Notes: generated by a model not told the origin, from the letters alone. A DNA stretch of 64,000 nt from a bacterium (GCA_024742285.1 JANSYR010000012.1:36260-100259), one strand, 5' to 3'; counted from the first letter of the stretch, positions 30,119-34,552 are shown. Program-made: numbers and translations.

Positions 30119-30315
30119 GGCGACCTCCGGGGTTTGGGCGCAATCGGGAGCATCGAGCAGGCGTCGGGCGCCCGGAAGGGCCAATTGCCGGACGATGTCG
30201 GGCACCAATCTCGTGGAAGGCGGGAGGACGGGCGCGCGATGCCGGCGCGATGCCGATCCGTGTTCGTATCACGGTCGAACTAACAGACTTTATCGGGGAG
30301 AGCGTCGATTTTTCG

Positions 30316-30343
30316 TTGACAGGATCGGGATCGACGATAAATT
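30316..30343 (+). promoter_or_regulatory. Sigma70-like promoter (TTGACA-N16-TAAATT) in an AT-rich patch, bracketed by the inverted repeat CGTCGAT/ATCGACG
   Basis: Read from sequence; an AT-rich patch in a 70% GC genome; it sits 30 nt upstream of a small ORF with a GAGGT RBS. Confidence 0.3.
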
Positions 30344-30372
30344 GCGCCGCCACTCCAGACGAGGTACGAGCC

Positions 30373-30543
30373 ATGTTGGTCTCGCGAACAGGATGGAATC
30401 AGATGCGACGGCAGATGCAGACGGTGTGTCGAGCGGCGTTGGCTTCGAACGGCGGCGAATTCGCCGGGTTCGAGAGCCATATCGGCTCACTCCGCTTCGG
30501 CCTGGCTGATTCGGAATCCGACCTCGTCTCGCTCGCGCCCTAG
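30373..30543 (+). CDS. Hypothetical small protein (56 aa)
   Basis: ATG with a GAGGT RBS 8 nt upstream, downstream of the promoter-like element. No similarity recognised; this could also be part of a non-coding leader. Confidence 0.2.
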   Translation: MLVSRTGWNQMRRQMQTVCRAALASNGGEFAGFESHIGSLRFGLADSESDLVSLAP

Positions 30544-30744
30544 CAAGAGCGCTTCGAGCGAGATCGGCTAGGACGGACTTCGTCTGACGAGGTTCGCCGC
30601 GGGGATTCCCTTCCTCGCCCGAGCGCCTGGCTCTGAGGCGTCGCGACGTCGCGTCGCGCCCATGGACGACCGCGTCAGCGAATCGACCCGCGGACGCCGT
30701 GCGGGATCGTTGCGCCCGGGAAGGGATTCCTGCGCGCACGGACC

Positions 30745-30832
30745 GCGAACGACGATGGCGGATCTGGTTCAACGGGAGAACGCCGGAATGTGACTCCGGA
30801 GATGTCGGGTTCGATTCCCACGGTTCGCACCA
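30745..30832 (+). tRNA. tRNA-like element, degenerate (His-like anticodon arm CCGGA-AUGUGAC-UCCGG, T-loop GGGTTCGATTCCC, ends ACCA)
   Basis: Folded by eye: the 3' half resembles tRNA-His (anticodon GTG, T-arm, acceptor, ACCA), but the 5' half is 12 nt too long and the T-stem has mismatches. Possible pseudo-tRNA. Confidence 0.25.
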
Positions 30833-30985
30833 CTTTCACGGATGAACTCGCAGATAGAGGAGAGATCCGAAAACGAGCATCGCGAATGCGATCGGTCACC
30901 AGCGGAGTCGGTTCTGTATGCCGACCCGGGGCGAGGGAGTTCGTTCTCCCCGCGTCTACCGGGGCCCCTCGCGCGCGACGCACCA

Positions 30986-31059
30986 GCGTGGATAGCTCAG
31001 CAGGTGAGAGCAACGGACGCAGAATCCGTAGGCCGCAGGTTCGATTCCTGCTCCATTCG
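30986..31059 (+). tRNA. tRNA-like element / probable pseudo-tRNA (D-arm TAGCTCAGCAGGTGAGAGC, anticodon stem ACGGA/TCCGT, T-arm GCAGGTTCGATTCCTGC)
   Basis: Full cloverleaf geometry of 73 nt, but G at position 33 of the anticodon loop (loop cgCAGaa) and two non-Watson-Crick acceptor pairs. No CCA. Confidence 0.3.
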
Positions 31060-31079
31060 CTTCTTTACCCGAAGCACCC

Positions 31080-32636: not shown

Positions 32637-32688
32637 CGCAGGTCGTTCTCCTTCCTCGGAATCGGGATCGATCGCGGGTCCACCGGAC

Positions 32689-32719
32689 GGCCCGGTCCTG
32701 CTTCGTGCAGGGCCGGGCC
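32689..32719 (+). terminator. Strong hairpin (13 bp stem, UUCGU loop) between the SPFH and PcfJ-like genes; terminator or attenuator-like, no U-tract
   Basis: GGCCCGGTCCTGC-TTCGT-GCAGGGCCGGGCC read from sequence (one G-U pair). Confidence 0.3.
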
Positions 32720-32800
32720 CATTCGGGGCGCAGTCCACGCGCCCCGGAACGAACGATCGATTCGCGCGGAACGTGATCCCGCGCTGGAACGGATGAACAC

Positions 32801-34270
32801 GTGGCCACTCGAGCCCGGGTCGCGGCGCCGCGACCTCCGCAGGAGGTCCCGCTCCGCGTACAGAAGCATTTGCGTCGTCTCGGCCTGTACACCGGTGAGG
32901 ACTACCTCCGCTGGTGCATGCGCCGGGGGTTCGCGGCGTCCTATCGAAAGACCTGGGATGCGCTCGAAGAGGAGTGGTCCGCGCACGGTCGCGAGATCGC
33001 GCAGGCACAGTCTCGTCTCAAGGTCGATCGGGATCCGGCGAAGCTGATCGCACGTGTGTGCGAAGGAAAGCTCCGGCCGCGGGACATCGCGCGGCCCCGC
33101 TGGCGCGCGCTCGCGGAGCGGATCGATGCCCAGCCGATGACCGCGCGGCAGACCCGCGCCCTCCGTCGGCTCGTGGAAGTCGTTCTGAAGCGCGGTCGAC
33201 TCCTCCTCGCGGAGGGGGAGGTCGGTGGCGATCGACTTCCGTATCTCGACGCGCTGATCGTGCTGGCGCAGAACCACCGGCACTGGGTTCGGAAGCCCGT
33301 CGACTGGCACCCGCGCACGCACAACGCCGAACGTCAGCTCGCTTCGCTGATCCGCCATCTGATTGCGAGGTATCCGGTGCCCGCGTTCATGGACGCCGCC
33401 TGGCTTCGGTCCGGCGAAACGGCGCTTGCGTATCGACGGTGGTACCGCGCGATCGGTCGCGGAGAGAATCTGCGTCACCAGGAAGGGCCGATCCCCTGGA
33501 CGAACCGGATCGTGCACTGGTTCCTGAAGGCGCCGGCGCATCTCTCCATCGAGGCGGCCATTCGCTGGGGACAGGTCCGCGCCGAAGGCGGGAACGAAGC
33601 GCTGGCCCGCGCGATCGTCGCGTCCAGGATCGGCCGGAACTTCGAACACGACGCCTTCTGGGTCACGGTGATCCGATTCCTCGTCCTTCACGACTGGATC
33701 CTCCCTCGCGCCGTCGGTCCCATCATCGACTATCTGCACCACCAGAGGTTCGTCGTCGTCGAGGCCTTCGAGGCGCCCGGCGTGCGAGCCCCCGCGCGCC
33801 CCGCGCAGCCCAACCTGACGATGCGAGGCCGGTCTCCCTTCGCACTCCTGCGGGAGGTCGAGCGGTGGCACCGCGACCTGGCCAGGACGCCGACGCGTGG
33901 ACCGATCTCCTGGCCCGGTTCGGGCATCCGCGAGTTCTCCCAGGAAACGGGCATCAAGGGACGCACGCTCCAGGTCTGGCTCATCCGCGAGCTCCGCTCC
34001 GCCGCGGCGCTCCACGCCGAGGGCGCACGCATGCGCCACTGCGTCGCGACCTACGTTCCTGAGTGCCGCGACGGCGACTGCTCCATCTGGACGATGGAGC
34101 GCCACTCCTTCGAAGGCATCGACGCCCGGGTGACGATCGAAGTCAACCGTGAGGGCGAGATCGTCGAAGTGCGCGGCAAGGCGAACCGTGAGCCGTCCGA
34201 GCGGGAGCTCGAGGTGATCCGCTCGTGGGCCGCGCGCGAGCGGCTTCAGCTCGCGCCCATCATCGGCTGA
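32801..34270 (+). CDS. PcfJ-like protein (plasmid/mobile-element-associated family of unknown function)
   Basis: C-terminal LHAEGARMRHCVATYVPECRDGDCSIWTMER matches the EGxxMxHCVxxY signature I recall for the PcfJ-like family (PF14284). GTG start at 32801; start uncertain. Confidence 0.5.
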   Translation: MATRARVAAPRPPQEVPLRVQKHLRRLGLYTGEDYLRWCMRRGFAASYRKTWDALEEEWSAHGREIAQAQSRLKVDRDPAKLIARVCEGKLRPRDIARPRWRALAERIDAQPMTARQTRALRRLVEVVLKRGRLLLAEGEVGGDRLPYLDALIVLAQNHRHWVRKPVDWHPRTHNAERQLASLIRHLIARYPVPAFMDAAWLRSGETALAYRRWYRAIGRGENLRHQEGPIPWTNRIVHWFLKAPAHLSIEAAIRWGQVRAEGGNEALARAIVASRIGRNFEHDAFWVTVIRFLVLHDWILPRAVGPIIDYLHHQRFVVVEAFEAPGVRAPARPAQPNLTMRGRSPFALLREVERWHRDLARTPTRGPISWPGSGIREFSQETGIKGRTLQVWLIRELRSAAALHAEGARMRHCVATYVPECRDGDCSIWTMERHSFEGIDARVTIEVNREGEIVEVRGKANREPSERELEVIRSWAARERLQLAPIIG

Positions 34271-34365
34271 GCCGCTTCGCCGATCGATCGCGACCCCAGG
34301 CGGTGAGCCCGGCTCCGCGTCGGAACCGGGAGGCAGAGCGTCGGGTACCGGACGACCACCCGAGT

Positions 34366-34454
34366 CGCCTGGTCGGGACTTCCGCAGCGAACCCAGCTCG
34401 GTCGCCATGCCGCAATAGAAGCCGCCTGGTCGCGACGTCTGCGACGAACCCAGC
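34366..34454. repeat. Two degenerate direct copies (32 bp each, 57 bp apart) of the 3' terminal region of the adjacent tRNA-Pro
   Basis: R1 CGCCTGGTCGGGACTTCCGCAGCGAACCCAGC (34366-34397) and R2 CGCCTGGTCGCGACGTCTGCGACGAACCCAGC (34423-34454) against the tRNA-Pro 3' end in the same orientation, TGGTCGGGGCGACTGGATTTGAACCAGC. Confidence 0.5.
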
Positions 34455-34475
34455 AGAATGCGGATATCGCAAAAA

Positions 34476-34552
34476 TGGTCGGGGCGACTGGATTTGAACC
34501 AGCGACCTCTTCGTCCCGAACGAAGCGCGCTACCAAACTGCGCCACGCCCCG
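34476..34552 (-). tRNA. tRNA-Pro (anticodon CGG), CCA encoded
   Basis: Full cloverleaf folded by hand: acceptor CGGGGCG/CGCCCCG, D-stem GCGC, anticodon stem CTTCG/CGAAG with loop ttCGGga, T-arm GCTGG-TTCAAAT-CCAGT, discriminator A, C1:G72 as in bacterial tRNA-Pro. Confidence 0.85.

Follow-up and report, generated by a model that had tools for sequence, protein, structure and literature searches.

A module composed of a Band-7 protein and a tRNA-resembling RNA (b7a-tRNA) was predicted by Burroughs and Aravind in 2016 for RtcB RNA repair (given here after a passage in Wang et al., 2018, 10.1101/312249). That passage regards the pair as a functional analogue of Rsr/YrlA, and at the time the prediction stood without validation; a literature search for the term b7a-tRNA returned no paper later than this 2018 preprint. 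The SPFH protein PaFlo8 of P. aeruginosa is encoded inside the rtc locus (PMC13086221), and damaged tRNAs activate RtcR (a passage in PMC7790460). In cyanobacteria long tRNA arrays, which neighbour rtcB and are co-induced with it, have been proposed to be sponges for toxin RNases (PMC8421152), a long tRNA array being defined, in a passage of PMC4758250, by at least 20 tRNA genes at a density of at least 2 per kb. Here we analyze a bacterial DNA stretch of 64,000 nucleotides (nt) (GCA_024742285.1, JANSYR010000012.1:36260-100259), in the following called the window, in which a gene for an SPFH/Band-7 protein, a gene for a PcfJ-domain protein and several tRNA-like RNA elements stand between a GST gene and tRNA-Pro(CGG). 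With a probability of about 0.72 the stretch from ~30214 to 34322 is a self-contained SPFH/tRNA-like RNA cassette that was gained by a Myxococcota lineage in the tRNA-Pro/GST spacer and is detached from Rtc operons. Judged from its sequence and gene order, the feature is a detached copy of the predicted Band-7/b7a-tRNA(/PcfJ) accessory cassette of Rtc-type RNA repair. A preliminary description of the locus had considered the two protein genes a good candidate for an undescribed accessory module, which does not hold, since Band-7 together with a tRNA-like RNA next to RtcB was, according to the passage in 10.1101/312249, already predicted in 2016.

The limits of the cassette were obtained by comparison with a graded series of relatives from a metagenome scan with RsmB. 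In L013 (RsmB 91% identical) rsmB-rpe-tRNA-Pro is followed by SDR-FMO-MFS, and in L014 (RsmB 89% identical) rsmB-rpe-tRNA-Pro is followed, after 391 nt, by GST-SDR-FMO-MFS; the cassette is absent from both, and neither an SPFH gene nor a PcfJ gene nor extra tRNA-like genes were found in these two loci. In the alignment, homology between the window and L014 stops at ~30213 when followed from GST and at 34323 when followed from tRNA-Pro, and L014 has ~194 unrelated nt where the window has 4.1 kb. The cassette starts just upstream of its promoter and ends ~50 nt past the PcfJ stop codon, and its right junction lies ~150 nt beyond tRNA-Pro, not inside the tRNA. Thus, the empty site envisaged in the preliminary description exists, in L014, and its proposal of an accessory module that is present or absent beside tRNA-Pro is borne out by both relatives; its bounds of 30119–34552 were, however, not upheld, the part that varies between genomes being ~30214–34322. 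The nucleotide identities of rsmB (window-L013 0.864, window-L014 0.840, L013-L014 0.830) favour the tree ((window, L013), L014), and therefore one gain beats two losses, by a small margin. L013 lacks the GST gene that the window and L014 have (12426–12760 in L013 versus 12439–13468 in L014), a further and independent indel at this junction close to tRNA-Pro.

SPFH homologues with 53–82% identity were traced to eight further distinct loci, which together with the window make nine independent ones. In four of the nine, rtcA or rtcR-rtcBA precedes the cassette. L084 (SPFH 82% identical) has rtcA, a short open reading frame (ORF), a gap of ~1 kb and SPFH; L086 (65%) has rtcR, then rtcB-rtcA, the short ORF, a gap of 1.1 kb, SPFH, PcfJ and two RlaP genes, with Pnkp/Hen1 on the other strand; L092 (63%) and L093 (58%) have rtcR, then rtcB-rtcA, the short ORF, a gap, SPFH and PcfJ, the last being truncated in L092. 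As to the others, L085 (80%) is a short contig with a leader of ~1.3 kb followed by SPFH, L089 (65%) carries Pnkp/Hen1 ~5 kb upstream, L090 (58%), a Myxococcota metagenome-assembled genome (MAG), has SPFH-PcfJ and no Rtc genes, and L091 (53%), from Steroidobacteraceae, has SPFH alone. The tRNA-like genes lie on the SPFH strand in every traced gap; their number is two in L084, L085 and L092, six in L086, 16 in L090 and one each in L089, L091 and L093, and at every locus the last of them ends 311–432 nt before the SPFH start codon. The promoter of the window is kept in L084, where it lies 3' of rtcA, and in L085, and TTGAC-type sites resembling it are present in L086, L092 and L089. The window copy is exactly the promoter-to-end cassette that elsewhere forms the distal part of an RtcR-controlled rtcB-rtcA operon. 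Most likely the cassette came from a related myxobacterium or from the rtc locus of the organism itself, probably by illegitimate or homologous recombination; no site-specific integration was involved.

The RNA preceding SPFH at this distance in 9/9 loci is the b7a-type RNA. The copy in the window is an intact cloverleaf with a class I body and a non-canonical loop, C-G-CAG-A-A (G33, CAG). Across the nine loci the D arm, anticodon stem, T arm and acceptor stem are kept: 99.4% of the cells of the alignment are paired, compensatory changes occur at 9 of the 19 pairs, and the observed value was reached by 0/500 shuffles, with slid controls at 34–47%. The anticodon loop has no conserved sequence and varies in length from 5 to 9 nt, which argues that the RNA cannot decode and would be a mimic of a tRNA. 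A covariance model (R1) built on the nine RNAs scores them with 80–87 bits; the next-best matches, operon-borne tRNA-Arg(GCG) genes with 65–69 bits, are the ordinary tRNAs closest to the b7a-type RNA. A tRNA-Arg gene with this unusual anticodon lies between rtcR and rtcB in L086 (4280–4354) and also in L092, where a 70-nt Pro-like gene and the Arg(GCG) gene are found upstream of rtcB at 4330–4399 and 4465–4540. In L090 (GCA_039030075.1) 16 tRNA genes are packed into 1.6 kb (6016–7604) directly 5' of SPFH-PcfJ, the sixteenth being of the b7a type, and this array appears to link long tRNA arrays to the SPFH cassette.

In the window the order of the cassette is promoter, short ORF, His-like tRNA, tRNA-like RNA, T-arm minihelix, leader of ~270 nt, SPFH and PcfJ (Table 1). 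Over the entire 1.3-kb leader region, promoter hexamers included, the window, L084 and L085 are 77% identical. The His-like gene occurs in six loci (window, L084, L085, L086, L090, L092) with G-1, GUG anticodon and CCA; in the alignment 91% of the cells are paired and 6 pairs are compensatory. Of its copies, those of the window, L084 and L085 have a T stem of only three G-C pairs; at position 73 the first two have A and that of L085 has C. Downstream of the b7a-type RNA there is at 31080–31116 a hairpin, GGTCC-GAGA-GGATC, followed by a T arm, GGGG-TTCGACT-CCCC, and this T-arm minihelix is kept in L084, L085, L090, L092 and L093. The leader domain is closed by a 12-bp helix between GCGAGGCCCTCT (31148–31159) and GGAGGGCCTCGC (31406–31417), which is maintained via double substitutions in L089, L090 and L093. 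With RNAalifold, 41 pairs were obtained from eight loci, with 85% of the cells paired versus 34–44% when slid, 19 compensatory pairs and 0/500 shuffles reaching the observed value; it should be noted, however, that the structure was derived from the same alignment that scores its pairing, so that this support is provisional. The window sequence alone folds with −156 kcal/mol (z = −3.4), and the domain matched no Rfam family. In the window, L084, L085, L086, L089, L090 and L093 the domain contains the invariant inner blocks GCAAGCC and CCCGCC. The stem of the hairpin at 31427–31450 has changed in sequence yet stayed complementary in L084, L085 and L086.

Table 1. Positions of the cassette, its parts and its neighbours in the window.
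Feature	Position	Strand	Basis or remark
GST	29477–30118	−	Pfam
Inserted cassette	~30214–34322	+	~4.1 kb, between the ends of homology with L014
Sigma70-like promoter, TTGACA-16-TAAATT	30316–30343	+	Site scan
Putative short ORF, 56 amino acids (aa), with ribosome-binding site	30373–30543	+	45% identical to the L084 peptide
tRNA-His(GUG)-like gene with G-1 and encoded CCA	30757–30832	+	ARAGORN and Rfam (30758–30832), 51.4 bits
Candidate b7a-type tRNA-like RNA (Band-7-associated)	30986–31060	+	ARAGORN and Rfam, 57.4 bits
Variable-arm-like hairpin (GGTCCGAGAGGATC), T-arm minihelix (GGGGTTCGACTCCCC-AC) and hairpin GGCCGG..CCGGCC	31080–31136	+	Read from sequence
Structured leader RNA domain, ~270 nt	31148–31417	+	RNAalifold
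Hairpin just 5' of the SPFH ribosome-binding site	31427–31450	+	Read from sequence
SPFH/Band_7 gene	31485–32636	+	Pfam PF01145 Band_7, E 7e-37
PcfJ-domain gene	32801–34270	+	Pfam PF14284, 50 bits versus cut-off 25
Two 57-nt minisatellite units from tRNA-Pro 3' end and trailer	34363–34454	−	Outside the cassette
tRNA-Pro(CGG)	34476–34552	−	ARAGORN and Rfam, 65.7 bits, intact; conserved host gene, outside the cassette
rpe	34683–35393	−	Pfam
rsmB	35405–36877	−	Pfam
Bacterial small signal recognition particle RNA	54019–54117	−	57.7 bits; ordinary housekeeping RNA

Three tRNA-like fragments had been noted on the left side of the locus and counted among the hallmarks of repeated site-specific integration. 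The sequences are there, but two of them, at 30758–30832 and 30986–31060, are full-length cloverleaf genes by ARAGORN and Rfam, and the third is a variable-arm-like hairpin plus T arm. The tRNA-like sequences lie on the strand opposite to tRNA-Pro, are conserved and covarying and accompany SPFH in distant genomes, and are not decayed targets of integration. Extra "tRNAs" and a permuted tmRNA returned by relaxed ARAGORN settings in 30100–31500 were discarded as low-threshold noise. Between the two cloverleaf genes the spacer 30860–30975 (GGAGTCGGTTCTGTATGCCGACCCGGGGC...) is highly conserved in L084 and L085 and contains a hairpin whose stem varies between loci without losing complementarity; possibly another small RNA element is present here.

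The promoter and the small ORF mentioned in the preliminary description are both present. The scan for promoters gave two sites versus 0.2 expected from shuffles. The peptide of the short ORF is 45% identical to that of L084 (E 5e-7), and a short ORF was called at the same position in L086, L089, L090, L092 and L093, where the peptide sequence is not conserved. In most loci such an ORF (43–58 codons; 1243–1413 in L084, 6722–6898 in L086) follows with a ribosome-binding site right after the promoter or rtcA, its peptide being conserved among close relatives only. Around it, GACGAGGT at 30360–30367 is complementary to ACCTCGTC at 30521–30528. The short ORF could encode a leader peptide or could be part of a 5' RNA domain. 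Codon-position GC periodicity is absent across 30119–31484, the flanking genes having a GC content at third codon positions (GC3) of 0.85–0.95, in line with the earlier statement that these 1.37 kb hold no credible ORF.

The SPFH protein (383 aa) carries a ~150-aa N-terminal extension, the Band_7 domain and then a coiled-coil tail, and belongs to a large clade of ~382-residue proteins of the "slipin family" with thousands of full-length homologues. No hydrophobic segment was found in it (maximum KD19 hydropathy 1.22), and against the HflK/HflC models of NCBIfam it scores far below the cut-offs (53 bits versus 159); the protein is probably a soluble oligomer. Between rluF and lysC some enterobacteria have a gene for a slipin (43% identical) and, after it, one for a nucleotidyltransferase. 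In Citrobacter freundii (NZ_CP151862.1; L095, 4966–8919) the slipin gene is preceded by rtcR at a distance of 450 nt, and E. coli STEC639 (CP061233.1; L094, 7001–8925) has no rtcR and a gap of 530 nt; neither rtcB nor, in the gap, a tRNA-like RNA was found at these two loci. Their order being rtcR-slipin-nucleotidyltransferase with no tRNA-like RNA, the enterobacterial loci were rejected as annotated anchors.

The PcfJ protein (489 aa) matches Pfam at residues 393–468 and has 101 full-length homologues. It carries the invariant motif His-Cys...Tyr...Cys...Trp (RHCVATYVPECRDGDCSIW in the window protein). PcfJ follows SPFH in 5 of the 7 assessable loci (window, L086, L090, L092 and L093). Twelve PcfJ loci without SPFH led us to reject the idea that the two form an obligate pair. 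Likewise rejected was the idea that solitary PcfJ genes carry the b7a-type RNA: beside such genes R1 found none, and the tRNA-Met upstream of PcfJ in L003 scores 42 bits, like an ordinary tRNA. At L097 (6472–8500) a solitary PcfJ gene (42% identical) stands directly 3' of a PemK/MazF-type toxin gene and 5' of a pseudouridine synthase gene.

Regarding the surroundings, the earlier calls of GST, SPFH, PcfJ, rpe and rsmB were all confirmed by Pfam, and that of an intact tRNA-Pro(CGG) at the right end by ARAGORN and Rfam. By a match of the window RsmB, at 92% identity, to a protein annotated to a Myxococcota MAG, the host belongs to the Myxococcota, as do the named SPFH and PcfJ relatives. tRNA-Pro(CGG) has the same position downstream of rpe in 12 relatives. 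In more distant relatives the genes after tRNA-Pro are those for a pentapeptide/PEP-CTERM protein, PqiB/PqiA, an SDR, an amidohydrolase and IDO, and no integrase was seen among the main ORFs scanned downstream of tRNA-Pro in L016, L019, L020, L022, L024 and L028. The site is a synteny breakpoint and not visibly a recombinase target.

Between tRNA-Pro and the insert there are two direct repeats of 35 nt (34363–34397 and 34420–34454), which are 83% identical and spaced by 57 nt. Their likeness to the last 29 nt of the tRNA is modest, the local alignment scores being 11 and 9 with P ~0.02 each against random sequence, and they keep a 57-nt register with the tRNA-Pro 3' end. In the unit of 57–58 nt a mimic of the tRNA 3' end is combined with a copy of the trailer (TTTGCGGCATCG...). 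Among the four closest genomes the number of units is two in the window, four in L013 (12426–12655), one in L014 (12439–12495) and two to three in L015 (12361–12480); in relatives below ~82% RsmB identity the unit was not found. Beyond the two units in the window follow ~45 nt of sequence homologous to L014. The units are not attachment (att) scars of the insert, because they lie on the tRNA side only and are present in relatives without the insert. By their presence in these relatives and the homology to L014 beyond them, they form a clade-specific minisatellite older than the insert, a local array unrelated to the cassette; it may be a terminator array or a processing signal. Of the decayed tandem copies of the tRNA 3' end that had been reported, the two repeats do exist, but their likeness to the tRNA is modest and they are not integration scars.

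Nor do other properties of the cassette speak for mobility. Apart from SPFH, PcfJ and the 56-aa ORF there is no credible ORF, and a recombinase domain is absent from all three; here the preliminary description was right: no integrase, transposase or phage gene was seen in the cassette. Terminal repeats at both junctions were limited to a 7-nt CGGGAGG near both ends, which is meaningless at the ~69% GC of the window, and at the GST side there is no direct repeat of the tRNA 3' end. Repeated site-specific integration at tRNA-Pro, as originally proposed, is contradicted by copies which do not flank the insert and by a junction ~150 nt off the tRNA. An atypical composition had been considered a possible mark of the cargo, but GC3 is 0.858 for SPFH and 0.836 for PcfJ versus 0.885 ± 0.049 for 44 genes of the window, i.e., within about one standard deviation, and by codon-usage distance the two genes rank 21 and 26 of 44, which is typical of the window. 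With the PADLOC models there was no hit for SPFH, PcfJ or the short ORF, which are thus not filed as a known defence system. No PcfJ relatives were found in IMG/VR viral contigs and no match to PcfJ in PLSDB plasmids (tblastn), where SPFH matches are on chromids or mislabelled chromosomes only. An origin from a plasmid, an integrative and conjugative element or a phage is unsupported.

How the cassette could work may be sketched by analogy. The primary transcript would be cut into small RNAs by tRNA-processing enzymes, and the tRNA-like RNA would bind the oligomeric SPFH protein, giving a particle that could act like the Ro60/Y-RNA pair of rsr-yrlBA-rtcBA operons. As a scaffold or cofactor, the particle might hand broken tRNAs to a ligase whose gene lies elsewhere; alternatively it might titrate anticodon nucleases as a decoy. 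For PcfJ the role of an accessory enzyme is envisaged, with a fold that may be GNAT-like. Both the scaffold and the decoy mechanism we infer from such analogy. A bolder version, which we put forward tentatively and would not expect to be correct, is that the cassette may encode a free-standing, RtcB-independent ribonucleoprotein: a soluble SPFH cage loaded with the non-decoding tRNA mimic that guards or recycles the tRNA pool. Made with the undescribed ~270-nt RNA and a GNAT-like PcfJ enzyme, it may be, e.g., a sensor of or decoy for anticodon nucleases. If this version were true, the core would seed arrays of up to 16 tRNA genes and would join stress-induced tRNA arrays to Rtc repair.

Several observations weigh against the reading of a gained, detached Rtc accessory cassette. 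The direction of the indel hangs on a one-gene tree with nearly equal distances. No homologue of RtcB, RtcA, RtcR or RlaP was found in the 64-kb window (tblastn), and the link to RNA repair is here guilt by association elsewhere. In the window clade the His-like gene has a T stem of 3 bp and A73, and the b7a-type RNA has a C2/U71 mismatch and G33, so that some decay is possible. The enterobacterial slipin loci beside rtcR are without tRNA-like RNA by ARAGORN, covariance model and Rfam, and the PcfJ homologues (32–51% identity) are often solitary, with neither SPFH nor b7a-type RNA nearby.

Of the other explanations, the one that survives best is that the RNA genes are spare or decoy tRNAs, a miniature stress-induced array that replaces host tRNAs or shields them from anticodon nucleases, while SPFH and PcfJ have a separate role. 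The His-like gene retains G-1, GUG anticodon and CCA, and tRNAs with GUN anticodons are classic nuclease targets. Moreover, the tRNA genes expand to six in L086 and 16 in L090 and are near-canonical there (50–74 bits), and the idea of a sponge has been proposed for the cyanobacterial arrays co-regulated with rtcB (PMC8421152). However, the sole RNA that is always present is the one with the variable anticodon loop that cannot decode, and the window has only one candidate decoding tRNA, whose T stem is weakened; we regard this explanation as possible but rather unlikely.

It is improbable that the cassette is ancestral here and was lost twice, once on the way to L013 and once on the way to L014, without any insertion. 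Deletions do happen here, since L013 has also lost GST at the same junction, the composition of the cassette is that of the host, and the three rsmB distances (0.83–0.86) make a weak tree. Yet two losses are needed versus one gain under the best tree, L014 has ~194 nt of unrelated sequence at the site, and L084, with the closest copies, as well as L086, L092 and L093 hold the cassette downstream of rtcA and not beside tRNA-Pro. Similarly improbable is the view that the copy in the window, separated from rtcBA, has lost its function and is decaying. It could appeal to the lack of Rtc genes within 64 kb, to the mismatches and G33 in the tRNA-like RNAs of the window and to the truncated PcfJ of L092, which demonstrates that such decay occurs; against this, both ORFs are intact, of full length and host-like in GC3, comparison with L084 and L085 shows promoter, ribosome-binding site and every RNA element to be kept, identical copies are present in two samples, and stand-alone intact copies recur in L090 (SPFH and PcfJ) and L091 (SPFH only). 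Largely refuted and very improbable is a degraded integrative island, i.e., an element that integrated, possibly repeatedly, in the tRNA-Pro 3' end, left att copies and tRNA fragments and lost its integrase: the insert does lie beside a tRNA gene in a region differing between relatives, copies of the tRNA 3' end exist, and PcfJ is named after a gene of a conjugative plasmid and its family is patchily distributed, but both copies are on the tRNA side and none is at the far end, they form a regular 57-nt array including the tRNA trailer with 1–4 units in relatives lacking the insert, the junction is ~150 nt away from the tRNA, the six relatives scanned have no integrase among their main ORFs, the composition is typical of the window, phage and plasmid collections gave no PcfJ match, and the tRNA-like genes on the left belong to the cargo.

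The window and its eight sister loci give covariation support to the tRNA mimic of the ten-year-old Band-7/b7a-tRNA prediction, and they are evidence that the module travels as a promoter-to-terminus cassette able to leave the rtcBA operon. As new conserved parts they add the structured leader, the T-arm minihelix, PcfJ as a partner and variable tRNA arrays. A particle of SPFH and the RNA, if it forms, would correspond in bacteria to Ro/Y-RNA or vault-like particles and would be a handle on how tRNA-cleaving toxins are dealt with by bacteria. For annotation the lesson is that tRNA-like sequences near accessory genes are not always integration scars.

Compared with known systems, the cassette shares with tRNA-targeting genomic islands that it adjoins a tRNA gene and varies between close relatives, but it has no integrase, no flanking att repeats, no insertion in the tRNA and no atypical composition. 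With the membrane SPFH scaffolds (HflK/C, stomatin/NfeD, flotillins) the window SPFH has in common a Band_7 domain and a coiled-coil tail; unlike these it has no membrane anchor and no NfeD partner and is below the HflK/HflC cut-offs. The rtcB-linked tRNA arrays of cyanobacteria also consist of supernumerary tRNA genes that are operon-transcribed and tied to rtcB, sister loci of the cassette having 6–16 genes. The window, however, has only two cloverleaf genes, of which one cannot decode, the terms SPFH and PcfJ occur 0 times in PMC8421152, and the threshold for a long tRNA array (at least 20 genes) is reached neither by the window with 2 nor by the largest sister locus, L090, with 16.

Closer is the Rsr (Ro60)/Y RNA (YrlA, YrlB) system, e.g., rsr-yrlBA-rtcBA of Salmonella, in which an RNA with a tRNA-like domain likewise stands beside a non-enzymatic oligomeric or ring-shaped protein in an Rtc-operon setting, and for which a role as scaffold, cofactor or nuclease decoy is likewise proposed. 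There are nevertheless differences: the cassette has no TROVE/Ro60 domain (Pfam) and no Y-RNA match in Rfam at E ≤1, its partner protein is SPFH, and its tRNA-like RNA is a free-standing cloverleaf and not a Y RNA domain. The closest match is the Band-7/b7a-tRNA module. The window has the Band-7/SPFH gene (PF01145, E 7e-37), directly preceded by a tRNA-resembling RNA gene that is conserved in 9/9 loci; homologous loci lie in rtcR-rtcBA operons (L086, L092, L093 and partly, with rtcA, L084), and RlaP and Pnkp/Hen1 are found near them. What sets the window apart is that it has no RtcB, RtcA or RtcR in 64 kb and has its own sigma70-like promoter. To the module as it is known second-hand, through the passage in Wang et al. 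(2018), the window adds the His-like tRNA, the T-arm minihelix, the ~270-nt leader and PcfJ.

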